Below are positions 25,301 to 63,583 of a stretch of 64,000 nt of DNA, in pieces; position 1 is the first letter of the stretch; each line of letters starts with the position of its first letter. The stretch covers positions 496,001 to 560,000 of the forward strand of contig JBEWZL010000266.1 in NCBI GenBank assembly GCA_045837725.1. The letters are read 5' to 3'. Under the pieces are notes generated by a model, which was not told the DNA's origin, ran no database searches, and saw only the letters and a list, made by a program, of their open reading frames with translations. A program made the position numbers and the translations under genes. The stretch comes from Vermamoeba vermiformis. Its lineage: Eukaryota.

Positions 25301-27304
25301 GTGTCTTTGAGCGTTTATTCAGTAGTTTACATCCGTCGTTAATTTGGTTATCGTCCAATTTGATACGAGTTAATTCGTCTTTAATTAGTCCGAGTAGGTT
25401 ACCTTCGTTTATGTTTTTATGTAGTGTTACATCGTATGTTTTTAATATGTTGATCGTATTGCATATTAGCGGGTCATTTATTTTTCTTGTTTTTGTTATA
25501 TTTCTAGTCGCCTTTTCGTCTTTAAGTCGTTGTTCTAGTATTTTATTAAGGATCGAGTTGCTGTTCAGTCCCCTTTCTACGATACTGTTTGCAAAGGTTT
25601 TTTCGTTTGTTATTCGTAGGTTTTCAATTTGTATACCTCCTTCTGTTCTGGGTAGTTGTAGTCTATCGTTATTGGCTTTTGCGTGTAGAGGAATGGCTTT
25701 TTTGATTAAATTCATGATATTGTTGTTCATTTCGTCGAGCATGTTGTTGTCAAAAAGTTGGATTTGGAAATGATATTCTATCGATGGGATAATGACTTTC
25801 TTTATTAGTTCTGTTTTGCATAGTACGTCTAGTTTTTTTGATTTGATAATTGACAACTTGGATCGGAATTTTTTAATCGCTTCGTCGATATTATTTTGGT
25901 TTTCTCCTTTAAGGTTAATCAGTACACCAAGGTATTTGTAGTTTCCCGTCTCATTGATTGTTTGTATTGCTTTATTATAGAATTTAATGTCTTCGTTTTT
26001 GTGATACGACGCGTACGCTGATTTATCGTGGTTGACTAGAATGCCGTAATATTCTGAAAACTTTTCTATAGTCTCGGCCATTCGTTTTATGTCTCCGTAA
26101 TCTTCAGATATGAGTAATATATCATCGGCGAATGCCAGGACTGGAATTTGTATATTTTTGTTTTTCGTCATCCCGTATCCTTCTGATTCTTCTTCAATCA
26201 TTTTTAGTAGCGGATTAATAAATATAATGAATAATAATGGCGATAAACCGTCCCCTTGTTTAACTCCTCTTTCGATATCGATTTTTTCCGTTAGTTCGTT
26301 GTTCACTATTATATTCGCTTTGTTGTTTTTGTATATATTTAGTAGTAGAGTTATCATTTCGGAGTCTATTTTATAGTATTCTAGTATTTGTTGTAATCCC
26401 CAATGTTCGACGCTGTCATATGCTTTTTTGAAGTCGATGAAGGCAAGGGAATCACGAAGGCAGCACGTTGGTCCACCGATTCGTCAAAAAACACGTGGAT
26501 TTACACGAAATTTCGCCCTACATTCGCGCATGGGACGTCGTTAATGGCAAAGGAATGGCACCAATTGACATAGCAATGCAAGACTGGAATATACCCGTCG
26601 TGATGTTCTTGCTACTTCACGGAGCTCAGTTCCGAAGCATAGGTATAGACTTCCCACTTCAATCGTTCCTCAGCTACGCTATTTCCTATTATGGAAATCA
26701 TCCTCATCAGTTGGAACTCGCGGAAATAATTCGTCACTTGGTCACGCATTATGGCGCTGCGATAAATTATCCCGATCAAAGTGGAGATAGTTGTCTTGGT
26801 ATCGCTATCAAAACCGGCAACCCAGTAATTTTGCAACTGATTCTGAGTTGGGAGGAAATGTTCACTGGCCATGCAGCAACGGCATGAAGCCAGTGCCACT
26901 CGTTTGCAGATTAATCAACAACATCAACGACTTCAAATGCATGATCAATTGCTTGGTAGAGTACGGGGCTGACATCAACGCAACTGGCATTCAATTCTAC
27001 CCGCATTATTCCTGCGAAATTTCGCCATTAGTAATTCTCATGGACAAGCCAAATCCCGAGCCATACATGAGACAGTCATGGTGCCTCGTTGAACTCTATT
27101 GATGCGTATGGCTGGACAGTGTTACATTACTACATCCAGAAAGTGAGCGATCAAGACCGCGTTGCTCGATTATTGCAACAAAAGATACCAAACTGTAGCG
27201 TGCAGTATGAAGGAGGCGAACAATATTTAAATCTTGATGCAAGTATGATTACTGCACAAATCAGCGAACAAGTCCTCAAGGAGCTTTTTTCAGATAGTGC
27301 CTAG
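22304..27304 (+). pseudogene. F-box/LRR/ankyrin gene disrupted by a LINE insertion and frameshifts
   Basis: YLPPEVLVNIFKFL F-box; removing the insertion restores NSSNHEGSTLVHRF, matching paralog NSQNSNGNTQAHRI; frameshifts near 26845 and 27075. Confidence 0.85.
23728..26448 (-). mobile_element. 5'-truncated non-LTR retrotransposon (RT, RNase H, CCHC knuckle)
   Basis: FIDFKKAYDSV, GVKQGDGLSP, LAFADD (RT); WTDGS, ELEGI, TDSES, HVPSH (RNase H); CINC..H....C; (CA)n tail; TSD GAATCACGAAGGCAGCACGT at 23708-23727 and 26449-26468. Confidence 0.96.
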
Positions 27305-27513: not shown

Positions 27514-29955
27514 ATGGTAAGTTCGAACTTATATTAGTTGATTATTCTAACGTGTCTCATAGGGTAATACAGCAAGCCAAGCTAACCGTTCTCCTGTTCA
27601 ATGGGGGATTCGCACTCTGGACCCTTATTTGGAACCGGAATTTTCAATGCAAAAAAAGGATGATAAGAGAATTCAGACGATGGTTGGATTGGTAAGCGGA
27701 GAGTGATTTAGATCTTGATCCGTCAATTCTTTTTTAATTCTCTACCTTTTTAGTTCCAACAGATTATGAAGCTTCATATTCATTACTTGCCGCCAGAAGT
27801 ACTTGTTAGAATATTCGAATTCTTTCCGTTGAACTTCATCGCCAAATCCGTGGTCAAAGTTTGCCGTCGATGGAGAGCGGTCTGCTACCTTCTTCTGAAG
27901 CCTCGACAATTGCGTGTTAATGAAGTTTATTACAATTTATACAAGCACGCTGTTTACAATTTCAAAATCGACACGCTGATTCTGTGCCATGGATCCGTAG
28001 AGAAAATAGCCAATATTTTGGTCTGTTCAAAAAGGCCAATCAATACTGTTGTTGCCTATAATATACGCGAGTCATATCGTCAGCTCACTTCCGATGAACA
28101 AAGAGCCACAGAAAACGTTACAACGCTTGCTATTTACGCTTCGGATCTTGGATGCTTGTATCAATTCCCGCAAGTCCGTCGATTGCAATTGTTGAAAGAT
28201 GCTGGCAATATAACAGTCGAAGTTGAAGGTGCATTTGAAAGCGTTGAAGAATTGACAGTTGACAGGAGTTTTCTCGAGCGAAATTTCGAAACAATTCTTT
28301 CGCTCTTCCCTTCGCTGACAACCATCAACCTGTTAGATAACCGCATAGATAACTATCTGCAACAAAAACTTTGGACTATTGGAATAGAATTGCGATGGCC
28401 ATTGAATTTCACGAAGAAAGAATTAGCTGAAATTCCGTATCATCATTTCTACTATCAAACCGGAGACACTATGGCCTATTCGAAGCCCAGTTATGTAGTT
28501 GAAAACTGGAAGACTATCATCACTTCAATAGAATACGAAAATGATTTATATTCAAGACCTATCGAGTACGTTTACCCTTCAACGATAGATTTTTCAAAGC
28601 AACAGCAGCGTCGGTCAGAGAAAGAAATCATTCGCCAAATAGTTCCCATAGCCAAGCGCCAACTAGAATCTGTCGTTGAGTCTCAGCTTCTGCCGTATTG
28701 GACAACAGTCGACCTGTGCATGGCACACGCTAATCGGCGGCAGTTAGTTCCGAACCTGCTAAGGCGATTGGAAGCCAAACATTTTACAACAGTGAAGACA
28801 AAAGTATTGTGTGAACTGATAGAACACTACGGTATTACGGAGTTGATCAGAATCATGGGAGAGGAGTCGTTCCGCAAAGTCGTAAATTCTCAGAATTCAA
28901 ACGGCAACACGCAGGCTCATAGAATCGTCAGAGAAGACTGCAGAATAGATTTGAACGAGATTGCACCGTACATCGAACATTGGCACGTGTTCAACAACAA
29001 AGGAATTGCGCCCATTGATATCGCACTCAAAACCATGGACATGTCAATCATCACATTTTTGCTTCAACGCGGCGCTATTTTGCCAGAAGATCACAATATT
29101 CCGTTCACCTACTCAAATTTCAACTTCTTCAAACAGTATCAGCCTTCAATTTTCAAGACAAAAAACCCAACTCAAATGTTGTTCCACGATGATTGGCTGC
29201 GAAGCGGGACTTCGGTCATTAGAGCAGTCGATGCAATGGTATCAGTTGGTGCAAATGTCCACGCTTTCAATCGACATCTTCAATCGTTCCTCAACTTCAT
29301 TATTTCCTTTTATGGAAGTCACTTTGAAAAGTCAGAACTTGAAAATCTGATTGAACGATTGGTACAACATTACAAAGTGGACATTAATCAGCTTGACGGC
29401 AATGGCGACACTCCTCTAGGCACGGCTATTAGGACAATTAACACCAAGATCATCAAGTTGATTGCTCGATTGGGAGCTACTGTCAACGATATTTGCAGCA
29501 ACAACATGAAGCCGATTCCGTTCATTTGCAGCTCAGTCAAGAACATCAACGCGTTTAAATGCTTAATCGATTGCCTGTTGGAGTTCGGAACTGACATCAA
29601 CCCCATCACCGTTCAATATACTACCACAGGAGATCGCGTCGTCTCTCCTTTGTTGCTCGTGATGGAAAATCGAAATTTCATACCGTTCATGAAACACTTG
29701 GTGTCACGTGGTGCTTCACTGAACTTCGTCGATTCGCAAGGATGGACTTTGTAGCATCATTTCATTCACAAAACAACTGATGTTGACTACCGCGTCCAAG
29801 CTATCACTTTGTTGCGTCAGCAGCTGTTACAAGATGCAATGGACATTGACGAAGATCACAATGGAAGTTCATTTTGCCTCCGTCAAATCACTCCGCAATT
29901 GAGCGAGCAAGTTCTTGCTGAAATTTTTACGGAGAGCGAATATGATTTTGAATAG
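27514..29955 (+). CDS. F-box/LRR/ankyrin protein (tandem paralog) with in-frame TAG at 29752
   Basis: Spliced start MGNTASQ (myristoylation-like); YLPPEVLVRIFEFF; ankyrin DGNGDTPLGTAI; homology to the upstream copy continues past the TAG to 29955. Confidence 0.8.
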
Positions 29956-39027: not shown

Positions 39028-42000
39028 ATGGCGCAGGCAAAAATTGTCCGCGTTATCCGACAACGCGCCTTTTCACGAAGTAAGCGTTGCTGATCAAGAA
39101 TCCCAAAACTTCGGCTATTTGGTACGCTAATGTTACTAGTGATTCGTTTGTACTTAATATTCAAACAGGATAACGGAATGGTGCTATCAGATCTTCCTCC
39201 CCAAGAAGATCCACTCGTCCCTGGTTTTACAGTTAGTCTTACTGTGGACGAACTCCTTCATCAGTCATATATTAAATACGATGCAAGCACAAATACAGTG
39301 AACTTCGATTGCAATATAAATGTGGTCGCTCCATATCAATACAGCAACCAAGCTGGCGCTGACTACGCTGAATGGGTACGTCGTCATGACCCTTCAGAAA
39401 TAATGCAACCAGGCGATGTTGTTGGCGTCATTAGCGGCAATCAAGGCATTACAAAGACCATACTTCCATCGTACGTAGTCAGCGTGATCAGTACTCGGCA
39501 TGCACTATGCGCGAATCTCCCACCACCAAATATTCGCCCGCAAGGAGAGCCAGTAGCGTTCAAAGGTCAAGCACCCGTCAAAATAATAGGAAAAGTAAGC
39601 TATTTGATTTGTGTTCTTTTGCGACTGACTTGGCTTCTTAGGTCAAACTGAACGATATCATCGTTCCGTCAGGTAAAAATGACGGCACGGGCATTGCAAA
39701 GCGATTTTGTAAGGACCCCGAGCTGATGAATCACGTTGTTGGCCAGGCTTGGGAAGAATCAAACGACGAAGGTGTCAAACTTGTCAATTGCATGATCGAC
39801 ATTAAGAGTCCAGATATTGGCGTAAAATGTGTGCTCTTCTTTTGTCCTATTGCAACTTCTAACCAGTAGCTCGCAGCGGAAGACAAGGATGAAAAGAAGC
39901 ACTCGCAGCTCCAGGAATTATCATGTTTAACTTGGCTAACAAGGATAACGAGAGTTCATTCATCGATGTGCATTTAGCAGACCCAACGGCTGTGTTTGCC
40001 GAGCTCAAAAACGTAATTCAGAGTCTACTGGAAGATGTGTCCGGGTTGACCGTCATAGTTTGGGTCGATAAATCTGCCGTCCCTGGATTCATCAAGACTC
40101 AATTCCTACGCGATTTTGGAGTACCCGATGCCCTCAGCGGAGGAGTAGCAATTACGGAAAAGGAATCCCTTGTACTTGTGGAAGAATGGAACCGAGATGT
40201 GTCGTACCCCAAGTACGAACCTACCGACTTTGACCAGCGAGTTAAGAGCGTGGTGGGAGTGAGTCAGAACCTCCTAGCAACATATGATCTTGCTAAACTG
40301 GACCGCCATGACAACCATACGATGATCATAAGCATTGATATTCCCCCACATGAAGTGTTGGACGTCAAGCGTGCAGTGAAGAACGCAAGTCTCACAAGCC
40401 TCATTATGAGATACCCTATTACCCGAGGATTTAGGACTAGCGAACGAGTTCAACTATATCAACTAAATCTCGATTCGCTTCCTCCTATCGATAAGCTTCA
40501 TGTAGCACGACAAGAGTTGTGGGCAAAGTCTGCGATTCCGCATGAAAACATACCGAAGGGCATCACGAGCGGCAGATTAAATATGGCTAATTCTTGGGAA
40601 TTGAAACCGTTTGAGCTCCCACAGTTGAAGGGTATGTACAATAGCTATGGGATCTTGCTGCAGTACTAACGTAATTACCAGAGCATGTCTTTGTAGAACA
40701 TTTAGAATGCAAGGTACGTGAGCATTAACTGCATTAACAATCTAACCGTTGTAGGCAATGGCACTTCAAAACGCTATCGCTATGCAACACGGAACCGCTA
40801 TATTAATCATGGGTGGCTTTACGTCAAACAATGACTTAAACGAGCACATTTACAAAGTCGTGCAAGATTCTTCAGGTCAGTTCAACAAATTCTTTTTGTT
40901 TAAGTTAACTTTTCTCCCGTAGGACATGTGCACAGTTTTATACAAATCAAATCAAACGCCTTCCGCTCGGACAGTTTGTTGTTTAAGTTGTCGAATAAGG
41001 AAGTGGCCGTACTTCACCAAGCAGAAGATTCAATCGATTTTTCAGTAATGCGGCCTGAAGGTCAGTTGCGGTTCTTATTATTTTTAAACTCAATCTAACC
41101 CACGTGATAGAGAGTCTTTCAACAAAGAGAATTGGGCAGGTTAGCATTAAAGGAGTACCAAAGAGCGTATGTCAGCATAACCAAAGCTATTACATTGCCA
41201 CGCAATTGGTGCATAAGCTCGCTGTGTACAAAGTGTCACTGGACTGTAAGTGAACTGCTAAAGCCAACGAACGAAACAACGCAGCAAACTGATTCATTTT
41301 CAGTGTCCTCTTGCAAGCTATTCGCAACACTTAATTACGTTGACATTAGTTCTGTTGAGTTTGTTCCTTCAAGTACTCTACACGTGCATGTCAATAACGA
41401 CTTATATCTGCTTGGTAAGACAATGTAAGTGCCTGTCATTCGTTAATATAGTACAGATGAATCTTCGTTCAAACGAAAGGCAACGATTCAAAACGTCGTC
41501 GATATTTCTGGCACGAAACTTTTACACTTGGAGCTGGTTAACAACAAAATGACTCTCCAACAAACTGATAGTAAGTCCATTTCTTACCGTGCTGCAATTG
41601 ACAATGTTGTAGTTGGCCGTTACTCTGAACCGACAACTATCGGAGAGCTTCTTGAAGTATTGCCTCGCACTAGATTTAGTTGCACCAAAATCAGTGAGAA
41701 CAAATACGCGCTGTTCGGCGGTGTTTCTCCAACGGGTGAAGTTTTGAACGATATCTTTACGTTCTTGGTCCAGCCACCAGATCCAATGAGACATTATACA
41801 AACAGTATGCGCAGCACAATATGATCTAAATATCCATAATCTCACATATACGTTGTCAGTTTGGGCTGCTAAGTTCAAGATTTTCTCGCAAGAGAAGAAA
41901 ACTCGCATTGTTAAGTACGAGCAAGATGCGATTAAAGCCAGCGAGCAAAACAATCACATCAAAGCAGCCAAGCTGTACGAAGGATTATCCAAAGCATGTC

Positions 42001-43782: not shown

Positions 43783-45612
43783 ATGGATTGTGTAGATCAA
43801 TCAGAAAATGGACGCTATGTGGTCCATGATTTCAAAGACGTAGATAGCAAATCCGAGTCGGACTTGCTAACTGCGAGTGTCAGAAAGCAACTTTTTGATA
43901 TGGCTATAAAATTGCTTAAGCGGATAGAAAGTCGGTATGACGCAGCCACAGTCCCGTAAGTCGATCTTACCATCTAAAACCCAAACGATTTTCTTGAGAA
44001 TCCGATTCAGTATTTTGTATGTTAAAAAATTACATTAGTAATGTATAATATATGAGGGTAGAAAGGACTATTCTGTATATACAGGTAAGTGTGAAAAATA
44101 TTTTTGAATTTTCGTTTTAAATTCAATTTACCTTTATTTAGGCACCATGGGCATAGTCTTAATGTATTTGAAGCTGTTAAATATTCCTGAATTTTCGGGC
44201 TACGAAAATGAATTTGAAACGAAGATCCAATCGTTCATAAACAGTGCTCTTGCTGGATCACGAAAATATGAATCATCGGCAAGGTAAATAATATGTATTG
44301 CATTTAGTAATATTTTTCAAATATCGTATTCGACTTTTCGTTTGTCTAATGACGTTTTATGAAGATTGACGCCTACTTTCCATTGTGGTGAAGCAGGTGT
44401 GAGGACAATAGCCGCAGCATATTATAGCACTAGAGACACGAAAAAGAGTGACGAGTGTGCATCAAAATTAGTCGAAATGAGCAAAGCGGTGCTCGATCCA
44501 AACTACGAATCAAATGAAATGCTTTATGGGCGAGTCGGTACGGTTAAAAAATACCAAAAAATGCACAAAGCTAATTAAAAAACAGGATATTTATATTCAA
44601 TGCTTTATTTGAGCCGGACGCTCAACAATGAAGTTGGAAACAAAGTCGCATCCGTGATTGTTGCCCTTGGTGAAAAGTACATAATTTCTGAATAACTGAA
44701 ATAACCATGGATAATATATTTTTCTATATTATTTTGTACTAATATCAATATTTAGAATGGGTTCAAATGACGTCCCGTTGATGTACGAATGGCACGGCAA
44801 AAAATATTTGGGAGCGGCTCATGGACTCGTCGGAATATTACAAACGTTATTATTCACGAACGAAATGAACAACGAGAAGTCACGGACAGCAATAGTTAAG
44901 TCAATAGAATACGTGGCAAATATGGCACGAAAAGAACATGGCGCGTTCCCATCGAGAAGTACGACATTAGTTCACTCTTATTAATACTTCAAGTTATTTA
45001 CTAATATCGTTTATTTATAGACAAAGGCACTACTGACTTGGTGCAATGGTGTCACGGGCCAGTAGGTCCTGTCATGTTATTGTGCTTGGCGTACAAGGTA
45101 CGTGCTCACATCGATGTATTTCGAGGCAATTTTTCGGTATTTAATTCAGTCTTGTTTTAGATGTTCGGCACTAGTAGCTTCTTAGAAATAGCGAAACAAT
45201 GTTCCGATAAGATTTGGCGCGAAGGACTTTTAACCAAAGGACCCGGATTGTGCCATGGAATTAGCGGCAATGCGTAAGTCTTAAATAACAAGAAATAAAT
45301 ATGACTAACTAATGCTAATTTTAGATATACGTTTTTGACTATGTATCGAGCTACAAATGAAACGCTATATTTACATCGTGCGCTGAAATTTGCCTTGGCG
45401 TACGACAATGAAAAGTATCATAAGTTCCTAGGCACGCCTGATCAGTAAGAATTATTGATTATATATTAAATACTTAATAATAACCATATTTCCCTAGTCC
45501 ACAGAGTTTATACGAGGGAGAAGCTGGCATGGTTTGCTTGCTTGCGGATTTGCTGCATCCGGAGCAGTCGTACTTCCCTGGATATGAATTTTCTGCCACA
45601 TTTAGTCACTAG
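43783..45612 (+). CDS. LanC-like protein (LANCL2/GCR2 family)
   Basis: EMLYGRVGY, YEWHGKKYLGAAHG, QWCHGP, GLCHGISGNAY, SLYEG, FPGYE. Confidence 0.93.
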
Positions 45613-45773: not shown

Positions 45774-48700
45774 ATGCGATCATTCTTTCAAAAGCTAGTT
45801 GCAAAGAAGAAATCCGAAAGGGATTTGACGAAATCAAAAGACGATGATTGTGATTACGCTCATAGAATAAGTGATGCAGAGACTTGGAATAAATTAGCGC
45901 ACGTTCCTCATGGTAAGAATCAATTAGGTTGACGAGATCAAATTTTTTAACGGCTAATTTTAAATGCTTATGGTTTTTTAAATGCAATCGAAAAACGGTA
46001 AAAAATAGCAAATAATATGAAATTATTTTATTAATGAGATCGCTAATCTTTGACTAGAATTCCAAATTTCTCGATCACTGATCTCCGTTCTAATTTTGTT
46101 ATTTTTAGAGCAAGCATTCGCACATACCGAAGTGATTAAAGTGATTTATCATTGCGTGGAAAATAAGTTTTATTTTCTTCAATCTGAAAAGTGGCCGTAT
46201 CACTACGACTTCGCAAAGAAATTTTTAGCATACAAACAATCCCTGTCTACTTTCAACGTTGAAATGTATCTTAACGAAGAGCGTTCATTTATATTAGCGA
46301 CTATTATTCACCACAGAGATCAAGTAAGTTTTTTTTCGGATTTGAAAAGATCGCATCCGAACCGAAATTTCCAACCATTGCAAATACAAAGATTAGGCAT
46401 AATATATTAACATGTTATATTTTTAGAATATTTATTCGTTAGAATTGTGGCCAGGTGATAATCTCAAAGGCCAAAAAATCGTGTTTTTGTTCAACGAGCT
46501 TTCAAACTGCGTGTTTTTCAGTGAACAGCTCCACGTGCGACCTACTTCATTGATTCATGAACAGCACATCGAACCAGTACGTAATAACATATAATTCTAC
46601 CATTGAGCAATACCTTTTCGGATGTAGATCTGATCGTGTTTTTCTGTTTAGTTCAAAGAAAGTCTGCGTATAGTGGAGAGTTCAAAGTTATTTGCAGGCT
46701 TGAAATATCAACCACTCACGCAAGGCATTGCTTTTGGAACGTTAAAGATATTCAACGGACCTGCTGCTTCGGTAAGTACTCATAATTATAACCATCTAAT
46801 CGCACCTAATTACCACTAAATCTCATAAAGTGACATTGTTTACTATTTCTTAAGAAAAAATTATTCTTATTGTAGCCATACCTTTGGATCTGCACAAAAA
46901 AAATTCAAGATTTTCTGGCGTTCCGCGTAGAAATTAATCACAAGTAAAATTTCCTAGTAATTACTGATGATTTTTTTTAGTTTGATTCGAAGCTGGTACG
47001 ACGAGATTGGGTCGTGGTGAGCAAAGAAGTGCCCGTTGATATTCCACCAGTAGCGGGCCTCATCACCGAACAACTGCAAACACCACTTTGTCACATTGCC
47101 TTGTTGTGTTCGAATCGAAAAACACCAAATATGGGTCTAGTTGATGCCATCAAGTACGTTAGTCACGTGGCTTTTTGTTTCGAAGTTTCCGAACTGAATT
47201 CTTTTCCATTAGGTCGTTGTCTCATCTCGAAGGCAAATTAGTCAAAATGGTCGTTGCATCACAAGAGTATAAAATTGAGGAGGCCAAGCCTGAAGAAGCT
47301 CAGTACGTACTTTTATAAGCCCAATGGTTCATATTTTCGAAAAAAATTTAATAGCAAATTTCTATTCTGATGGTATTACCCATTAATTCGGGGAATACTA
47401 AATAAATAATATAGGCACAAACGATAAATTATTTTTTGCAAACGACCGGTCGTTTTTTGATTTTAAGGGATTTGGTCTAAATTTGGTTTTTCAGTGAATG
47501 GAAGAAGAATTGGGAGGCGTCACTCAGAGCGGCAGCAAAAAAGAATTCGTTGAAATCTGACTTGAAAACCAAAGGATTGATAGCGATGAAGAATTTAGAC
47601 AAACATTCGGTCTTATTTGCAGGCAGCAAAGCAACGTCATTGGCCAGAATTTCAACGCTGCAATTGCCCAACACGAACAAATTTACGACTGACAACGCAT
47701 TTGTTATTCCGTTCGGATATTACGCCGATCATATGTTACCAAATAAGGCAATCGTGGAAAAATTGATGAAAAATGAAGATCCAGACGAAGATATTAAGTT
47801 ATTGCAGGAATTGCGTGACAATATTATGAAGCAGCCGTTAGACTCAAAAATGTTGGATGATTTATTCAACGCCATGGCCACGTGGGAAGAGAACGGAATT
47901 CTCAAACAGAGCAGCGGAGTTATTTTTAGATCGAGCACAAACGTCGAGGTATGTTAAAACACGCACAAAACTTTTGCACTTTCAAGATCCGGATCTGTAT
48001 GACAAGTCCTTAATGACACTTTTGACACGTGTCAATCTCATTTTTTCACGCAACTATTTTCCTTACGAGAAGGCAAATTGATAATTGGAACTTTTTTAGG
48101 ACTTGGAAGGATTCAACGGCGCAGGTTTGTATATCAGCGAATCATTGCCGCTCAAAGACGTGCTTTCCCGCCAAAATCTCGAAGCAATCGTTAAACGCGT
48201 TTGGAGCAGCGTGTGGAATTTGCAAGGCTACGAAGAGCGAAAGTTGTTCGGCCTGTCGCAATCTGAAGTGCAAATGGCGATATTAGTGCAGCCTTATTTG
48301 AAAGAACAGATCATTTGCAATGGCGTCGGTATAACCGCCAATCCTTTCAGAAAAGACTTTGACGCATTTTTTGTCAACGTGCAAGTCCCTGGCGTGTAAG
48401 TCACACAAAAACATATTTTCACTGAAAATCACTTTAATTGAAATTTCCATTTTTGCGGCCATGTTTCACGCTTGAATTGTGGCTAATACTTACGCGGTGG
48501 TGCAAAACATGAAGCTTTTGTACCGTTTTTTATTAATTTTTCCAAATTAGGAATGTTACTGATAACTGCGGAGGAGAAACACCCGAACAAATGTTAATTT
48601 ACGACGATAACGGTACGAATTGGATTTTACAAGATTTTAACTAATAAGGACATTAACAACGTTGTTTAGGTCCGTGCCCCGAATTGATTTCGCACAGCTC

Positions 48701-48896
48701 ATTAATGCACGGCAAACACATCCTGAGCACGCCTGATGTCAATCATTTGTTCCACATCTTCACGGCGCTCAATAAGAAGTTCGTCGATGGATCCTCACAC
48801 AACGCCTTGGACGTGGAGTTTTTGATCTTGAAAAATCCGCAGCGAGAAATCGTTTTATTGCAATCTCGTCCTTTTAAAGTTCACTATCACTATTAA
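45774..48896 (+). CDS. PEP/pyruvate-binding (PPDK/PEP-synthase N-terminal ATP-grasp-like) protein
   Basis: AGLITEQLQTPLCHIALL, AGSKATSL, FRSSTNVEDLEGFNGAGLY, VKRVWSSVW, MAILVQ, DVEF..LLQSRP. Confidence 0.85.
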
Positions 48897-49001
48897 TAAT
48901 TAATACAACGAAACAAATGTATACTACAGTAAACTGGTAAATTTTATTGTTCGGGTATGCCTCAAACCGAAAATTATTTAATGACAATTGTCAGATGCGT
49001 T

Positions 49002-52000
49002 CTATTGCTGTTGCGGTGGTTGACCAAACAATCCTCCCTGGTTGAGCTGATTTTGCTGTTGCTGCTTCGCTCGGATCTCTTCCGGTGACAAGTGCTGGTA
49101 CTGCGGCATGGCAGAGATGTGTTGGAATTGCAGTTGTTGATTATTTTCATTAACAACTGTAGGCTGGAAGTTAGGGGAAGGGTTAGCACCAAAGCTAAAC
49201 GCAGAAGGTGTTGGCTGGGTAGATGAAGATCCGGATGTGCCAAAGCTGAATGAAGAGCTCGTGGCCGGTTGAGTTGACGGAGCTCCTCCGAAAGTGAATG
49301 AAGAAGGGGCTGTAGTAGGCTGCGATGAAGTACCGCCAAAGCTGAACGAGCTTTGAGGAGGTGCTGGTTGGGTTGATGCGCCAAAAGTAAATCCGCCCGA
49401 AGGAGCGGTCGTGGTGCTTGCTGCAGGAGCGCCAAATAAGGAAGGTCTAGGAGGTTGCGCGGCAGTTGTCGTGGAACCGAATGGGAATGGGGAAGTACCA
49501 AAACCGGATGTCGAAGTTGCAGCAGTAGTGCTAGGTGCGGATCCAAAACCGAAACCAGTTGAAGTAGTGCTACTTGTTGAAGGTGTAGTAGTGCTGCCAA
49601 ATACAGGAGCACTTGAAGAAGTTGAAGAAGTAGTACCAAATCCGGAAGAAGTTGACGGGGATCCGAAGCCACCACTTGACGAACCAAACGTGCCAAATCC
49701 TGAAGAAGTGGAGCTCGATGAACCAAACAACGAAGTAGTGTTTGTCGGTCCTGATGATGTAGAGGTACTGCCAAATGATGTTCCGGTCGTACTGCCTCCG
49801 AAACTGAATGCAGATGTAGCGGCAGGCGAAGATCCGGTTGAAGATCCGAACGAGAAGCTGGGTTGCGTTGAGCCTGTTTGACTGCCAAAGCCAGTATTGG
49901 TGCCTCCAAAGGCATTTGACTTGGATTGTAAAGCCACGCCAAAATTGTCAGCCAGCGATTGTGCATCTAAAAAAAAGTTAGTTGGATGTGGTTACAAAAT
50001 TAAGAGAATGAGAATTATACTTACAATGTTTGTGTTTAGCAAATACACCTTGTTGCGTTGTGTTGCCAAATCCACATACTGGTCCAGTGGAAGCGGCGAA
50101 TTGATAAGGGTTCGGATCGTCTTCCAACGTATCGCCTAAATCCACGACGAGTTTCAAGTTTTGCAACAGATCATCGACTTGTCGTTCATATTCAGCAGCT
50201 TGTTGCAACATTTCTCGCATTTGAACGCGTCCTTCTTGGTACTTCTCTTCGTGCGTCAGGAGCTGGTTCATCCATTTGTTTCTTAACTCCGAATCTTCTT
50301 TTAGTTGCTCGGATACCAAGCCAATATTTCCAATAATCTAAAGAATAGAACAAATTGTGAGTATATATTCACGAGAAATTTGGTTCATGAAGCTGAAAAA
50401 ATTCTAGATCGGATCCAAAGTTTGGTCGGTACAAAACGTCGCGAAATAGTTCCTTATTATATAAATAGTATTATATTACTTACGCGTTTGCCGTCTTCAA
50501 GAGTATCATCCATTTCTTTGATCTTCTGATCCATCAACTTGGCATGCACATCCATTTTCTCGTTCAACGAAATTAATTCTTCCAACGCATCGTAAACTTG
50601 TTGGTTAATTAATTTGTTTGCAAGCCATTTGTTGGCTAGTGTACGAGTCAAATTATTGAGCGAGTAGTAGGTGGTGTCGGTCATTCTTTCATCGATTTTC
50701 AGTGCAGCACTGCAATACAAATATTAATCGTCCGCTTAATTATAACTAATAGTATTAAATATACTTACTAATGATCGACAGGCTTCTTAGTTGGCTCAAG
50801 CACAACTTTGAAGATCCCGACATTGTCCTTGATCTGGATCAACTCATCTTTGTTCTTAAGCTCAGATGTCCAAGGCATCGGATGCAAGACATACAAGTCC
50901 ATAGGCTTCTCTAACATTAAGCCAGACAAGTTGTAGCTCGTAACAACCATCTTCTTGCGTTGGACGGTCAAAGTACGGCTGTTGAGAGAAAGATGCGTAG
51001 GAACCGTGACTTTGCTCCACGAAGAGCTGGACAACTTCAAGAAATCTGCATTGCCGAACTGCAAAAATTGATCGTCGCCTGGTCTGCAAACATTGATCAC
51101 AGAGCAGCCCAAGTACAATCCGTTTTGGAAAATTGTAACATTGCCTAATCAGGAAATAAAAATTAGCATCGATCTTATAGCACTCATAACAATATAATAT
51201 GTACTATTATAATGTATTAATTCCTTTTCTTACCTTTTTCAGTTGGAAGCTTCGATCTGTTCTTGAGCAACACAGCTAGCGAGACGACTTTGTTCGCAGC
51301 CTTGCAGTCATATAAGCAAACGATCTTAGCTTCAACATTGAAGCGCGATAGAGGGATGAGGGCAGGACTGTTCTTAATAACAGTGACTGGCTGCGCAGAC
51401 TTGAGGCAGTGCTCGGCCAGGGCTGACGGATCTGGTCCGATGGTCACATTCAAACTATCACTTACAGCCCATAAGGTTGCGTTATGGAACGAGTGACGAG
51501 GGTGTTGAAGTACGACCCACGCGTCTAATCGAACAGGATTGGTGGTCAATCGATATTCGATGTACCAAGGACCCACCGTGTGCACGCAACTGATCTGAAA
51601 CATTGCTCATTAGTTTCGGTTTGAAATGACGATTATCGCGCTTACCTTGACCTTTCGAGGTTCTTTTCCTTCAAGGTGAATAGACACATCTTGAGTCTTC
51701 ACGTGCGTTTCTTCAGTGCGGTGAGTAAGTTCGTTACGCAGCGCATCTTGAAGTTCCTGAAAAAAGGTTAAAAACTACAGGCATTTAAGTTTTAAACGTA
51801 CCTGTGCTACATTACGATCTAATATATCGATATCTGTTACCCAACGCATTTCAACATGCTTCAGAGAATTGGACGCAGTGTCGAAGATCGAGATCCAGCT
51901 CGTTTCAACACTCTTGCCATCGCTAGTATTTTGCCATTTCTTCTCAGTACCTAGACATAAACCTTCTGTAGTCTAAATAAGAAATTGAGTAAGGCGCCTA

Positions 52001-52487
52001 AATCGCATCTCGTATATTTTAGGACTTACTTGCTTATTTTCGAAAGTGCACTTGATTCTTGCACCGCGGAGCTCTAACAAAAGATGCTCAAATCCTTTAT
52101 TTTCTTCACCAATAAGGCGTCGTTGCCCGAGGCCCTTGGGTTTGCCAAAAGTAACAGATTTGACGCCACCCTCAGGATCGTCAACAATAAGAGTGCTCAC
52201 GACCTGATGGACTTCATCTTCATTAAATACCAAATTTATACAGCTTTCGCCTGCCGGAACGGATGCTTCCCTAAATAAATCTTTATTTTAGTTCAGAAAT
52301 TCTATTTCAGACAAACAAAAGCGAAATCAAATATTAAAATAATAAGATGATTTAAAATACTAATTTTAGGTCGAGATATTTTGGTTTTCTGGGCGTACCT
52401 TTCATAGTAAGCTAATCCGGACTTAAACAACACCACTTTGGTGATGTTGCATTCTGTAACCTTAGATTCGTATGAGGTTGATTGCAT
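49002..52487 (-). CDS. DUF4139-like protein fused to FG-repeat and GLEBS-like tail
   Basis: ITKVVLFKSGLAYYER N-terminus; coiled coil; in-frame splice KHKH-Y-AQSLADNFG into FxFG/SLFG repeats and FQHISAMPQYQHLSPEEIR. Confidence 0.7.
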
Positions 52488-54308: not shown

Positions 54309-56665
54309 TTAAAACTTGAATTCAGTTTTTCTTCGCTTTCTGTCGGTGTCTCGTTGCGGTTGTTGTCTTTTGCGGTATTCTTCTTCAATGCGGTCGCGAG
54401 AACGAGATCGAGAGCGACTTCTTTGTCTCGGTTTAGGCGCCGTAGTAGTATTAGCACCATTTTTGTTCCAATTGAATTGTTTGGCACGGTAAAGTTCGTT
54501 GCTTAAGGTGTCTGGGCGAGAATAGAAGCGGAAGTTTTGCCAGGTCGGTGATCGAGAGCGAGATCGTGAGCGAGATCTAGAACGAGATCTTGCACGAGAA
54601 CGACGGTCCACGTCTCGGTCTCTATCTCGATCTCGATCTCGATCTCGTGTTTCTCTTTGCTTTCTGTACATGTCACGCATCTCGTTGTTGCGGTCTCGTT
54701 CGCGAGTCTTCTCTACTTCTAGGGCACGGTGTATGTTGTCAGCGACGGAGGTTACTGTTCTGATTCGGTCCCGATCTCGATCCACTTGTCGCGCATCTAG
54801 TTTTTCGTCACGGCTTAGAACTACTCTGTCGAGCATATGCTTGTTCTCTTGTATGTACTGACAGGAGTAACTGTACTTTCCTTCTTGTGCAAGCGCTGCA
54901 CTCTGATGCACCAAGTTGAGTCCGAGTACCTCCACATCCGCGTTCTTTTCAACCTCGAATTTGTTTTGAGTCAAATCCTTGGTTTGAGTTATGACGCGCA
55001 TTCGCCGTGTACCGTCAAGCATGGTGAAGCGTATTTGAATTTGGAAAGGCAGACTCGTAATGTTGTCTGCTTTGACCCGATCCGCATCAACGCTGAAATC
55101 GAACGAAAATTCTTTCGCCAACTAAAAAGAGAATTGTTATTAGCTACTTGAAATATGCTTTAAAAATATTAAGTTACTTACTGTGATATTTCCAACGTCA
55201 ACATCGACACTAGTGAACTTGGTTTCTTCCTCCATGTTGTTATTGTTCTTCGACAGATCTTGCTTGATGGCAGCTCGGAACATTACTGCAGCACTTGATA
55301 CGAGCCTAATAGTGCCTTGTGTAGCAATGACTTTGTCATTCAAGAGTGCTTCGAAGTGTTCTCGAAGGCAAGTCGGATCCACAATGTCGATCGATCCAGC
55401 GGTCTTTTCGGCCAATATTGACAATATCTCGAGCTTGCAGTCCGACGAACCCTTAATACGCAAGATTGATACGGAGGTACCAGTCTTCTTCATCAACTCG
55501 GCGAGATCCACGTAGAATTTAGACACGCGCTGGATCTCGTTGTTGTAGTCCACGCTCTTCTTAGAACGATCATCAACTATTTCAAGTGACCCCACGCCAT
55601 TGTTGGCCTGGCCGTCAGTAGCCACGACGATGTTTCCGCGGCACTCGAGCTGTTGAATCATCCCGAGGCAGGCTGTAAGTGCTGGGCCAAGACTGGTCGC
55701 GCCTCGCTCTTCCAACGAGCACAGCTTGTTGAGCAAGACGTCATACGACTCCTTGATCGGTTTCAATTTGTGCGCAGTGCTGGCGTAAGTTCTGCCAAAG
55801 TCCATCAAACGATCAAAGTCGTTCAATTTGTCGCCAGCCAAAATCAGCGGCTCTTGTGATCCGTCGCCAATGACCGTCACTTCTGCGTCAAATGTCACGA
55901 TCGATACACGTGCATTTGGTTGTTGTTCTTTCAAGTTCTTCAGTTGTGCCTCGACACCCAAAATCACGCACTCGAGACGCGAGATCTGGTGGATGTGGCG
56001 GGCGAACGAGTTGAAATTCTCTCGATCGAATTGAGCGCTCTGTAGTCTTCTTCGCTTGACTAACAATTCGCTCAAATAACCATCAGCGTTGTATGAGGTT
56101 GACATTGAGCCCGATGTATCAATGCAAAAGAAGATCACCTGCTCTTGCGAGTTGGATGCCGCTTGAGCAGGACCCAAGATGTAATCAGCGATGGAACTCT
56201 TAGGAACCTGTAATATATTGTCAGTACTTTACTCTTTATTTTACTAATGACGTACCTCTTCTTCCTCGATCGAGTTTTCGTTGGTCGATCCGCAGATGGG
56301 ACAGTTCCAAACTTTATTCCCATTCTCTAGCGTATTTATTGCACTAAAAATAGTATTAATAAGACAATTACTATTAGAAAATATGTATTTATGTACCTTT
56401 TGCAGCTTAAAAACGCTGGACAATGATTACAAGTAAGCGGATCACCCGTGACTAGCGAGCTTTCTTTATCAATATCAAGCAAGCTAATCGCAATAACGTT
56501 AGTGTCAACGTCATCAAATTGGGTATTAGTATTAGGTAACGTGCAGTTTGCATTTGGCTGGCTCGACTTCTCTGCGTTCCAGACAGCCTTCTGAGCATCC
56601 CGACTCGAGATGTGCCAACTCTTCTTGTTCAAGTAAGCCAGCGATGAACCGAACTTGATAGACAT
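54309..56665 (-). CDS. Sec23/24-like Zn-finger + vWA protein (CPRas1-like, no Ras domain seen) with RS/RD tail
   Basis: TGDPLTCNHC; MIDAS CIDTSGSM; GATSLGPAL; TDGQAN; C-terminal RDRDRD and RSRSRSRSP. Confidence 0.8.
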
Positions 56666-60263: not shown

Positions 60264-61368
60264 CTAGCTCCAACTTTCATGAAAAACGACTTCCGGACTT
60301 ACTTTCACCTCGTCAATCAAAATTTTCTTAATGTCGTTGACCATAGTCTTAGGGCCGCACAGAAAATATTTCGTCTTTCTATTTGGACTGTCTGCAAAGT
60401 CTTTTTCAGCCGTTGCTACGATTTGCTTGATCTTGTCCCCTGTTATTCGCCCATTCTCGATTGATATATTAGAGCTATTATTGTTCGTTTCCTTATTGTT
60501 AGAGTCCTCATTAGTGACAGTAAAGATAGCTCTAATGTTCGAATGATTTCTTGCAAGATCTTGGATCTGGCTCACGTGCAATGCTTCGTCTATATTTCGA
60601 ACGCTACACAAATATGTGACGTGAGTAGTATTTGGATCACATTCTTCGGCGACGTAGTGTAGCATACTAAGCAAGGGTGTGGCTGGAAAATGCATTTTCG
60701 TCAGCATCCCGATCCAAAAATGAAATTATCTCCGTTGGGAGATAAAATACTAGTTTAATAAATGAGTACCTCCAATACCGCCTCCAATTAATACTACGTG
60801 TTCAGGTGCGTTAGGATCGTCTTTCAAGTAAAAGAAAGATCCGCCGGGTCCAGCAACAGTGACTTCATCGCCAATTTTAACGTCTTCGTGTAGCATTTGC
60901 GTCACAGGGTGCGTAGTCTTTTTAATAGACAATTCGAGGCACCCTGAAATAATTTGTTAATAATTGCGATCTCGCGTGACCACGATCTGAGGTCAGCTAA
61001 GACTTACCGGTCCGTTTTGTATGAAGAGGACTACTGGTCATTGAATATCCTGTAACTACTTCTATTGGAGTGTATTTTGGCCCGAGCTTGGCCATCACAT
61101 CTGCTGAGGGAAAAATATCGAGGTACTGTAAAGTAGAAAAATTAAATTAATATTTTTACTACGCATTAATATAGTGTTCAATTACGTCCCACGAAGTAAT
61201 ATTCAAATTAAAGCGGTTTTAAATTATAAAATTAATTTTCTTTACGTAGGTCGATAAACTCACTTGTCCCGGCTTGAATTCAAAGTTCTTACCAACATCA
61301 ACGGTAAATGATTTAACAGTAGATGTTGTTTGAACGATATTCACTACTTTTGCAGTCCAGCTAGTCAT
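60264..61368 (-). CDS. OXNAD1: Oxidoreductase NAD-binding domain protein (FNR family, OXNAD1-like)
   Basis: FEFKPGQ, GYSMTSSP, LIGGGIG-ATPLLSML, FLCGP, FHESWS. Confidence 0.8.
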
Positions 61369-61541: not shown

Positions 61542-63583
61542 CTACATGTCCTTAACCATTCTAAAAGTGTCTCTAACAACATTATCGCTCGCAGAATAAA
61601 AGTGCCATTCGAGCACGTTCTTGTTGTGCTCTTGATAGATCGACATCAATGCATAGCCGTAGTCCTTGTCAAACGTCGTTGCGGACCATACAGGCGTCTT
61701 AGTCCAGTCCTTAGAAAATCCTTCCGTGTTTCCTATATATAAAAAATATTAGCATCGTTAAATTTCAGTTTCTTTTAGAAAAAAAATTGAGCTGGATCTG
61801 CACTTTTCAGACGACTTCACATAAAAAGGAAATGTGATACTAACCTCCTGTACCAATCACAACATAGGCGGTGTCCTCTGCATTATGATAGCTTTGGCTC
61901 TTGACTTCAGACTTGTAAGTAGGGTAGATCCGTTCGTACGAATGCACGTGTCCACATATGAACAGATCGACTTTGTACTTGTGGAACAAATGCTCCATAG
62001 CCTCTTGAATCTTCTTAGCGTGTTTAATAGGCTTGCCGTCTTCACTTTCACCGTGAACTGAACTGTAAATCGGACGATGACCAGCGACCAAGATCCAAGG
62101 GTAGATGTCGCGCATGCTGTTGGCAATTTTCAAATCGTTTTCTAACCACGCCAATTGGTCACCGAAAGTAGAGGGCTCGGGAGCTCCAGGAAAATCTATG
62201 AATAGAGCGTGAGTAAGCGTTACTATTAGTTCTGAAATGACGATCGCGTGCACTTTTTCTTACCAGTCTCCGTAGAAATCGATACAAAGTGAATATTAGC
62301 ATAGTTATAGCTGTAAAACATGTTCGTGTTGCTGCCACTCTCTTCTCCGGGCATTTTGAATCGATGGTTGTACGCCGTAAAATTTCTTGAAAACTTGCAA
62401 CCTTCGTGCTTGCAGTCTTCCTCGTGATTTCCTAATAAGGCAAAATTAGCGCTTCACGTTACGTGTCCATGTTACTTACCGGGCAATACCATGTACGGCG
62501 CTACTCTCATCGCTGGCTCGACGAGTTTGAACCACTGATCCCACACTTCTTCGTACAAACCACCAGGATAATCATCAGCATAACTGTCCAGTGCACGTTA
62601 GATTTAATAGGATATTATACTATAATATAAGGTGGTCAGTAGTACCTGATGTCTCCGATGTGCCACACAAAGTCAGCTTCTTTGTTCACGATGCGGCTGA
62701 CGGCACGAGGGATGGTGTGCTGCGAGTTCACAATGCCCATGTCACCGTACACCACGACTGTCGTGTTCAGCGATGACTTGGAGGAGGTCGGTGTGGCTGG
62801 AGCGGACTGAAATAAAAGTTAGATCAAGCTCGAGGTGTCATCGCCCAGCACGTGACATTTAAATTTGACGGTAAGAATATATTTATAATTATAAGCCGGT
62901 ATTGGTTTACTCACGGTAAAGGAAAATTCGTCGCTCCATCCAGCTTTTTCGTCGCCACAAATGTAATAGTACTTCGTGCTTGGCTTCAGCTGTGTCATCT
63001 TGACGTGATTATGATACATTACGACGTCACCTCCATCGCTCTATCGATCGTTAGTAATTGAATACATCGCAGGTAAAAAGCCCGATTGAGGCTAAATTTA
63101 GAAATTTAGCATTTCAATGTCTTTTGTGGTTGCTTACTTTCAAGTAATTCACGCTTTCGCCAGTAGCTTTGTACGTGTATTGATTGGAGGCCAAGCCATA
63201 CTTCACTGTAACGGTGTGTGGCAGTCCGATGGTTAAGTAGCTTACCACCATTTCGCTCGGTGAACCCGAAACTGATTGAAACGTGAGTCATTGCATTAAT
63301 CATTATTATGCAGTACGACATAGATTTATCAATAAATTAAATTAAGATTCAATTTCAAATCCGTTTTTCACCAAAAAGTCTGAAATTATGATCATATTGA
63401 TAATAAATCGTGTAGTTTAATTCCCAATTTAATCTTTTAACAGTATGAATGAGCCTTACGAGCTAAATGAATGTTTTGTGGGATGCAATTCATTGATCCG
63501 CAGATTGCAGGGTAATCTTTCTCTGCCAGCACAGCGTGCGCGAGTAGCGACAACAAAATTATGAAGGCACTACCACGAAGCAT
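61542..63583 (-). CDS. Purple acid phosphatase (secreted metallophosphoesterase)
   Basis: Signal peptide; YGDMG, GDISYADD, PGNHE, GHRPIY, GHVHSYER. Confidence 0.93.

Follow-up and report, generated by a model that had tools for sequence, protein, structure and literature searches.

A spliced, conserved gene of Vermamoeba vermiformis joins a DUF4139-like module and a long helix to a Nup98-like FG tail

A nine-exon gene on the minus strand of a 64,000-nucleotide (nt) stretch of Vermamoeba vermiformis DNA (assembly GCA_045837725.1, contig JBEWZL010000266.1, positions 496,001 to 560,000; this whole stretch is called the window, and positions are counted from its first letter) encodes a protein of 950 amino acids (aa). 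In this protein, a DUF4139-like module and a long helix are fused to a Nup98-like phenylalanine-glycine (FG) domain and a partial GLEBS-like arm; the fusion is real, conserved and expressed. Both FG domains and GLEBS motifs usually belong to a small, well-catalogued set of nucleoporins; here, such a tail is carried by a different anchor and is both conserved and expressed. Judged from sequence comparisons, the chances are about even that this is an anchored, lineage-restricted FG-nucleoporin-like protein that could recruit a Rae1-type propeller.

Gene structure, transcripts and conservation

The coding span extends from 52487 to 49002, exactly the span given in the original prediction, which was made from the DNA letters alone. 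It contains a coding sequence of 2853 nt, open over its full length, that specifies 950 aa followed by a TAG stop codon. All eight introns (128, 57, 45, 51, 89, 59, 146 and 58 nt) have GT..AG borders. The last one had been proposed at about 49968-50024, joining the helical exon in frame to the FG repeats. The in-frame joining is correct, and the start has to be moved by one letter: intron 8 occupies 49967-50024 (58 nt) and links exon 8 (50337-50025) to exon 9 (49966-49002). If retained, it would lead to a stop after 15 codons.

Of the 24 runs found by a run search, four (X5, X6, X21 and X23) were placed on the gene and provide its RNA support; the evidence does not draw on X7 and X19 (water metagenome) or on the other low-share runs. 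X5 and X6 are Logan contigs for which the RNA label is a guess, and their spliced state argues for an RNA origin. These contigs show 95-99% likeness to the gene and together display all eight predicted introns as clean joints. A single 583-nt X5 contig holds exon 8 in full (313 nt), flanked by 73 nt of exon 7 and 200 nt of exon 9, with 49966 joined directly to 50025. In the X6 counterpart of this joint, 49966 is followed by 50030, with five divergent letters between the two sides.

The raw RNA runs X21 and X23, filed under the species label of the likely source, contribute 39 and 41 reads, respectively, at 90-99% likeness (mostly 90-95%) and with sparse coverage. Two reads in each run contain the joint of 51594 to 51646. 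None of the reads reaches 99% likeness or more (0/39 and 0/41), so they come from a diverged copy or strain that is expressed under the same species label. The reads cover 48974-49247 and 50070-51713 of the window and carry fixed differences, and their ends cease to match the window at 49132, 50935 and 51039.

An FG exon transcribed on its own was one outcome that had been raised as contradicting a fusion. The joined exon 8-9 form clearly exists, as part of an expressed, spliced gene, and separate transcription could occur as a minor event. Independent translation of the FG exon was rejected: the translation of exon 9 contains no in-frame methionine ahead of M916, so the FG repeats cannot be produced from an AUG within this exon. 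The exons, their features and the joints seen in the RNA runs are as follows.

52399..52487, minus strand: exon 1, aa 1-29 plus 2 nt; ATG at 52487, the first in-frame ATG past the upstream stop; X6 contig piece 52398-52492, with 52269/70 joined to 52398/9
52030..52270, minus strand: exon 2, aa 30-110; region judged DUF4140-like by eye; joints in X5 and X6
51802..51972, minus strand: exon 3, aa 111-167; 51972 joined to 52030 and 51755/6 joined to 51801/2
51646..51756, minus strand: exon 4, aa 168-204; 51594 joined to 51646 in X5, X6, X21 and X23
51234..51594, minus strand: exon 5, aa 205-325; first half of the DUF4139-like core (aa 279-325) at 51372-51234
50769..51144, minus strand: exon 6, aa 325-450; second half of the DUF4139-like core (aa 326-358) at 51144-51044, the remainder a beta-rich C-terminal part
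50484..50709, minus strand: exon 7, aa 450-525; aa 451-522 without proline or glycine, presumed helical
50025..50337, minus strand: exon 8, aa 526-630; predicted helix at aa 527-594 (50334-50131), then a disordered linker with the first GFG
49143..49966, minus strand: exon 9, FG domain proper, aa 631-904; 22 FG dipeptides (FSFG, GFG and SxFG types)
49047..49142, minus strand: exon 9, GLEBS-like motif, aa 905-936; core FQHISAMPQYQHLSPEEIR at aa 910-928 (49127-49071)
49002..49046, minus strand: exon 9, Q-rich C-terminal end with a single GLFG at aa 941-944 (49034-49023); TAG stop at 49004-49002; X5 contig extending to 48994

The gene is lineage-restricted, genuine and expressed. When exon 6 was searched with phmmer against 1.84 billion representatives, two matches were obtained. 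The true relative is a 127-aa exon-like open reading frame (ORF), P0001, with 71% identity; the second match, the repetitive protein P0002, was judged spurious from its sequence. An alignment of exon 6 and P0001 retrieved one 2260-nt metagenome contig, L001, which has matching exons 3-9, introns at equal places, and an intact order and frame. Exon 5 drew 308 candidates among longer proteins, with none at an E value of 0.001 or below, and a tblastn search of the gene model against the window returned no paralogue.

Identity to L001 equals 80% in the part of exon 3 compared (32/40), 86% in exon 4 (31/36), 84% in exon 5 (101/120), 71% in exon 6 (87/123) and 75% in exon 7 (56/75). It reaches 88% in the helix of exon 8 (60/68), the most conserved segment, falls to 47% in the linker of the same exon (16/34) and is 64% at the start of the FG exon (56/88, plus 40 gap columns). 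The folded parts are kept, and the FG motifs persist between spacers that vary by insertion and deletion, which is the pattern that a functional FG protein would be expected to show. The gene model and the spliced contigs bear out the predicted fusion, in which a beta-rich N-terminal part and a helical exon are joined in frame to an FG tail, and this diverged orthologue retains it through the start of the FG exon. Its presence there makes the fusion older than the approximately 15-30% protein divergence of the folded parts.

The sparse coverage and the lack of any read at 99% likeness in X21 and X23 would also fit a mis-assembly, a read-through of two genes or a decaying pseudogene. However, the spliced contigs stem from two independent runs and lack all introns at the predicted sites, including the one between exons 8 and 9. 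No stop interrupts the 2853-nt reading frame, the exon order recurs with an intact frame in a separate metagenome contig, and substitutions are biased toward synonymous sites. An artefact of this kind is extremely unlikely.

The FG tail and the GLEBS-like motif

Exon 9 provides the anticipated stretch of about 320 aa of FG repeats: its 320 in-frame residues contain 23 FG dipeptides, versus 4.45 +/- 1.86 (maximum, 12) in 5000 shuffles of the same residues, and 23 of its 33 phenylalanines precede a glycine. Overlapping pattern counts across the whole protein give nine FxFG (five of them FSFG), eight GFG (one in the exon 8 linker), two SLFG and one GLFG. The FG domain proper, aa 631-904, has 8.0 FG per 100 aa and is rich in S, T, G, P and A. 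It has 0.7% D+E and 0.7% R+K (1.5% charged residues), and F, I, L, V and M make up 14.2%. Nup98 FG domains are reported to have a median of 9 FG per 100 aa and approximately 2.5% charged residues, with a share of these five hydrophobic residues of 13-17% in ten example domains (PMC4283134). By these sequence measures, aa 631-904 has the density and composition of a cohesive Nup98-type FG domain.

Tandem Repeats Finder reported just one 19-nt array in the gene and no DNA-level tandem repeats in the FG exon, indicating that the FG repeats are old; a recent repeat expansion was accordingly rejected as the origin of the tail. Searched as a whole against PDB sequences, exon 9 gave merely chance matches to penicillin-binding proteins (E of approximately 0.9).

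The motif quoted in the original prediction, FQHISAMPQYQHLSPEEIR, is present at aa 910-928 and is followed by 22 further residues that include the GLFG. A phmmer search of the last 55 aa against 177,635 distinct PDB sequences returned two matches only, 3mmy_B (E = 1.6) and 7byf_B (E = 1.7). The former is the Nup98 GLEBS peptide from the Rae1 complex, and the latter is likewise a Nup98 GLEBS peptide. The alignment is headed by the pattern Q.I(S/T)AM..Y...S.EE(I/L)R, and in it, E925 and E926 are paired with the two adjacent glutamates of 3mmy_B. Conserved salt bridges with Rae1/Gle2 are described for E201/E202 of Nup98 and E154/E155 of Nup116 (PMC3783196). A GLEBS-type arm at the C terminus, matching only half of the canonical 57-residue motif, is therefore plausible, and its resemblance to the Nup98 GLEBS is suggestive, not proven.

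Within the 19-aa core, the relatives show five substitutions, of which four are synonymous and the fifth is H921N. The fit of 16 reads in X21 and 13 in X23 breaks off a little upstream of the core, which is thus better kept than its FG flank. The 59-aa tail drew 17 candidates among longer proteins, none of them at an E value of 10 or below, and thus no Nup98-like relative.

Nup98 and Nup116 resemble the 950-aa protein in several respects. Its FG domain is uncharged and S/T/G-rich, with approximately 8 FG per 100 aa, and the GLEBS-like motif adjoins the FG repeats, keeps the two glutamates and is directly followed by GLFG. GLEBS motifs are also found in Bub1 and BubR1 (Mad3), where they bind Bub3 with a glutamate pair across the top of the WD40 propeller. 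The short motif shares the paired glutamates with these proteins. In contrast to Bub1/BubR1, the protein shows no match to the Mad3/Bub1 region in a Pfam scan, which was run exon by exon on the eight translations of exons 2-9 at E <= 1 rather than on the spliced protein, and the best matches of the motif are Nup98 peptides.

The order of FG repeats, GLEBS-like motif, Q/N-rich linker, GLFG and stop mirrors the N-terminal part of Nup98 up to the first GLFG past its GLEBS, with 32 aligned residues compared. This would fit a DUF4139-family gene that captured the 5' part of a Nup98 paralogue (FG repeats, GLEBS and first GLFG) and now encodes a soluble or off-pore regulator, or decoy, titrating Rae1/Gle2 or Bub3. 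Overexpressed GLEBS is reported to mislocalise Rae1 in HeLa cells (PMC3783196). However, the tail has no relative at the DNA or protein level that points to a donor, and the FG exon lacks a recent tandem-repeat structure. The gene is conserved at approximately 30% protein divergence, so the fusion is no recent accident, and the strong conservation of the long helix favours a stable assembly over a free decoy. Together, these points make the titration scenario improbable.

The N-terminal module and the helical region

Residues 1-455 are predicted to form a beta-rich module with its core at aa 279-358. This module is probably a distant relative of DUF4139, although it is not a member by the Pfam criterion (gathering score of PF13598, 31.8 bits). 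For comparison, a family sample was built from bacterial genomes picked by a 16S motif and searched with PF13598, which gave matches in 3 of 5 and then in 27 of 61 genomes; 39 ORFs were drawn from the bacterial DUF4139 loci for home-built profiles. Against the spliced protein, a 15-sequence profile reached 17.2 bits (E = 7.9e-8 for a single target) and a 27-sequence profile reached 11.5 bits, where no shuffle out of 2000 exceeded 3.5 bits. Among the false scores, the highest (8.0 bits) was that of a coiled-coil-adjacent control ORF of the window (17357-17596) against the coiled-coil part of the profile, and the profile was therefore trimmed to the DUF4139 part alone. The trimmed profile matched aa 279-358 within aa 1-455 at 15.4 bits (E = 4.2e-7), exceeding all 2000 shuffles (maximum, 8.0). 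Approximately 204 real negative ORFs and the reversed sequence served as controls, and none was among the matches listed, the lowest of which scored 5.3 bits. Four weak bacterial members that Pfam does detect score 9.8-24.6 bits, a range that includes 15.4 bits.

The aligned core (aa 279-358) centers on the strand-loop-strand motif 'G.v.if..g.y.G....v....pgd...l.fG'. It spans the exon 5/6 junction (intron 5), which explains why it was missed in the exon-wise Pfam scan. In addition, hhalign aligned aa 5-449 with nearly the entire bacterial profile over 428 colinear columns (P = 1.5e-3) and, for exon 6, gave a probability of 44.5% (P = 2.3e-4) between alignments A1 and A2. In a search by language-model features, 20 of 30 matches of P0001 lie in PF13598-bearing clusters (shares of 12-43%; top score, 0.94, with 207 shared features). 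The scores obtained for exon 5 (0.81-0.84) serve as a lead only. The predicted DUF4139 likeness thus receives weak support from profiles, hhalign and language-model features, and none from exon-wise Pfam.

The module resembles the DUF4139/DUF4140 family (PF13598; CHP02231, 'mucoidy inhibitor MuiA' family) in its core motif and in its colinearity with bacterial members. It differs in falling far below the Pfam threshold, and no DUF4139 protein was among the matches of exon 6 in the phmmer search of 1.84 billion representatives. The bacterial sample (27 ORFs of 487-822 aa) differs further in layout, since these proteins have a coiled coil between DUF4140 and DUF4139 and end soon after the domain, where the 950-aa protein continues with a helical region and the FG tail. 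DUF4139/DUF4140 proteins occur in bacteria and archaea and are also reported in eukaryotes. DUF4139-type proteins of unknown function are named in the nematode Anisakis and in Leishmania (PMC7349779, PMC11203134), and the earlier label of a 'prokaryote-like' domain is therefore too strong.

One myxobacterial genome (near 3.498, 4.896, 5.536 and 11.782 Mb; loci L120-L130 on G001:C1) holds DUF4139 genes as four adjacent pairs. Each pair consists of a short paralogue (frame of 526-556 aa) and a long one (724-832 aa), the domain of the latter being split by an insertion.

A known nucleoporin fold at the N terminus, which would have contradicted the original prediction, was rejected: no such family was matched in the exon-wise Pfam scan or among PDB sequences. 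Exon 5 gave no PDB matches, and a profile of the exon 6 alignment A3 gave three, with E values of at least 0.17 and no nucleoporin among them.

Downstream of the module, aa 451-522 and 532-592 are almost devoid of proline and glycine. AlphaFold2, run on exon 8 together with its L001 orthologue, modeled one helix at residues 2-69 (aa 527-594) with 46 residues at a predicted local distance difference test (pLDDT) score of at least 90, the rest being disordered. The region of aa 460-595 is predicted to be helical and includes one 68-residue helix. As the best-conserved segment of the protein, the exon 8 helix may have a conserved partner or pair with itself. A search of exon 8 against PDB sequences yielded four matches, all with E values of at least 0.37 and none of them a nucleoporin.

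Candidate roles and genomic surroundings

Several FG nucleoporins share this general layout: Nup214/Nup159 combine a beta-propeller, a coiled coil and FG repeats, and Nup62, Nup54 and Nup58 are anchored by coiled coils. Like them, the 950-aa protein attaches a disordered FG domain to a folded domain and a long helix, in the N-to-C order of metazoan Nup214 (beta domain, helix, FG). Unlike them, it has no sequence match to such nucleoporins in Pfam or PDB, and its beta module appears, by sequence, to be DUF4139-like rather than a WD40-type propeller. By analogy with Nup214, coiled-coil pairing would let the beta module and helix anchor the protein on a scaffold. The FG domain would bind transport receptors or join an FG phase, and the GLEBS-like motif would recruit a WD40 protein of the Rae1/Gle2 type (or Bub3 type).

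A more specific proposal, which we put forward tentatively, is that of an unrecognised FG protein on the cytoplasmic face of the nuclear pore. There, a DUF4139-type beta module and a coiled coil would take the place of an autoproteolytic or beta-propeller anchor, with a minimal GLEBS arm at the extreme C terminus recruiting Rae1. If so, DUF4139, a widespread but uncharacterised family, would for the first time be placed in a cellular context in eukaryotes, and eukaryotic DUF4139-type proteins would gain a first functional hint. A location at the pore would also show the FG/GLEBS module to be portable from one anchor to another and would extend the nucleoporins by a lineage-specific member. No description of a DUF4139-like module combined with a helix and an FG/GLEBS-like tail was found among the titles and passages covered in the literature on DUF4139, DUF4140/MuiA and GLEBS.

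A number of observations weigh against a nucleoporin-like protein. Every family-level match is below its curated threshold, and the case draws on a single lineage and on motif matches that stay under their cut-offs. Nucleoporin_FG (PF13634) matches exon 9 at 26.2 bits (E = 1.5e-5; cut-off, 32.2). Nup98_GLEBS aligns at the place of the motif over model positions 17-35 of 39 only, scoring 12.5 bits (cut-off, 27; E = 0.16). The PDB match at E = 1.6 is not significant, and the 3mmy_B alignment covers residues 24-55 (32/56) of the peptide, which is the C-terminal arm only. The GLEBS assignment of the original prediction stands as far as the Nup98 peptide is the top PDB match and the family the sole motif-type Pfam match, and falls short in that neither is significant. 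Exons 2-9 gave no Pfam match to DUF4139 (PF13598), DUF4140 or an N-terminal nucleoporin family. The DUF4140-like resemblance at the expected place (aa 7-38) scores 5.0 bits, is beaten by 3 of 2000 shuffles and is not significant. The AlphaFold2 model of exon 6 from alignment A3, the second half of which was misaligned by MAFFT, is unusable (mean pLDDT, 36).

Differences from Nup98/Nup116 themselves add to these points. The FG domain is C-terminal instead of N-terminal and, at 274 aa, shorter than the 400-1000 aa considered for Nup98 (PMC4283134). Only one of the 23 FG dipeptides of exon 9 is a GLFG, the motif type that dominates in the Nup98/Nup116 family, and the anchor is a DUF4139-like module with a helix. 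The protein also lacks a Nup96 part and the autoproteolytic Nucleoporin2 domain (peptidase S59). As had been predicted, the latter gave no Pfam match across exons 2-9; the ORF ends at 49004-49002, and the DNA beyond this stop belongs to a convergent PPDK_N-like gene.

FG-like low-complexity tails also exist outside pores. The protein might thus be an FG-like low-complexity scaffold away from the nuclear pore, in a cytoplasmic or ribonucleoprotein condensate, at a membrane or in a vesicle coat. The DUF4139-like module would then do the main job, the FG tail would self-associate, and the GLEBS likeness would be due to chance in a Q-rich tail. The sub-threshold level of all nucleoporin-type matches fits such a role, as do the absence of a transport-related gene in the 64-kb neighbourhood and the lack of a Nup98-like relative of the 59-aa tail. 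Moreover, the N-terminal module belongs, if to any family, to one with no known link to pores, DUF4139 being described as of unknown function (PMC7349779). A chance likeness sits less well with the tail, whose best match among 177,635 PDB sequences is a Nup98 GLEBS peptide, placed beside an FG domain as in Nup98/Nup116. The changes in the motif core are mostly synonymous (4/5), and the composition of the FG domain lies inside the narrow Nup98 ranges. We regard an off-pore scaffold as possible but rather doubtful; if correct, it would be a natural case in which a cohesive FG domain serves away from the pore. The probability left over belongs to explanations that we have not thought of.

The neighbours of the gene are ordinary and unrelated, comprising convergent PPDK_N-like, divergent small and VWA/Sec23-trunk genes, F-box/ankyrin, LANC-like and Kelch ORFs, and a retroelement. 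The best annotated relatives of the VWA gene, from a ciliate, a dictyostelid and echinoderms, are only 31-37% identical, indicating that the organism belongs to a poorly sampled lineage. An Rfam scan across the window returned nothing beyond three transfer RNA genes. The features outside the FG gene are listed below.

1510-2350, plus strand: three transfer RNA genes within 850 nt (53-60 bits)
16654-17382, plus strand: E/K/A/R-repeat frame of 242 aa with EEAEAKRKAEE-like units; ORFs open in other frames and on the other strand, and strong AT and GC skew in the 2-kb bin; adjoined by the ORF at 17357-17596
19599-20219, 22506-23855 and 27754-29754, plus strand: a DUF4419 ORF (E = 2.3e-20) and two F-box-like ORFs, one with ankyrin repeats
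24660-26483, minus strand: retroelement with an intact frame of 607 aa (RVT_1, E = 1.4e-22; RNase H, E = 1.2e-11), in a bin with an AT skew of -0.41
41447-41821 and 44715-44981, plus strand, and 60267-60725 and 61843-62259, minus strand: exon-sized ORFs matching LANC_like (44715-44981), Kelch_4 (41447-41821), NAD_binding_1/ferric-reductase (60267-60725) and Metallophos (61843-62259)
about 47480-48896, plus strand: PPDK_N gene, intron-bearing, with a bacterial-type enzyme domain (pyruvate phosphate dikinase/phosphoenolpyruvate-utilising ATP-binding), matching at 48100-48396 (E = 6.4e-7) and 48657-48893 (E = 0.0059) and converging on the 3' end of the FG gene
from about 52763: divergent small gene
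54309-56228, minus strand: Sec23/24-trunk and VWA_2 gene, with relatives named 'type A von Willebrand factor domain' and 'circularly permutated Ras protein 1-like' proteins

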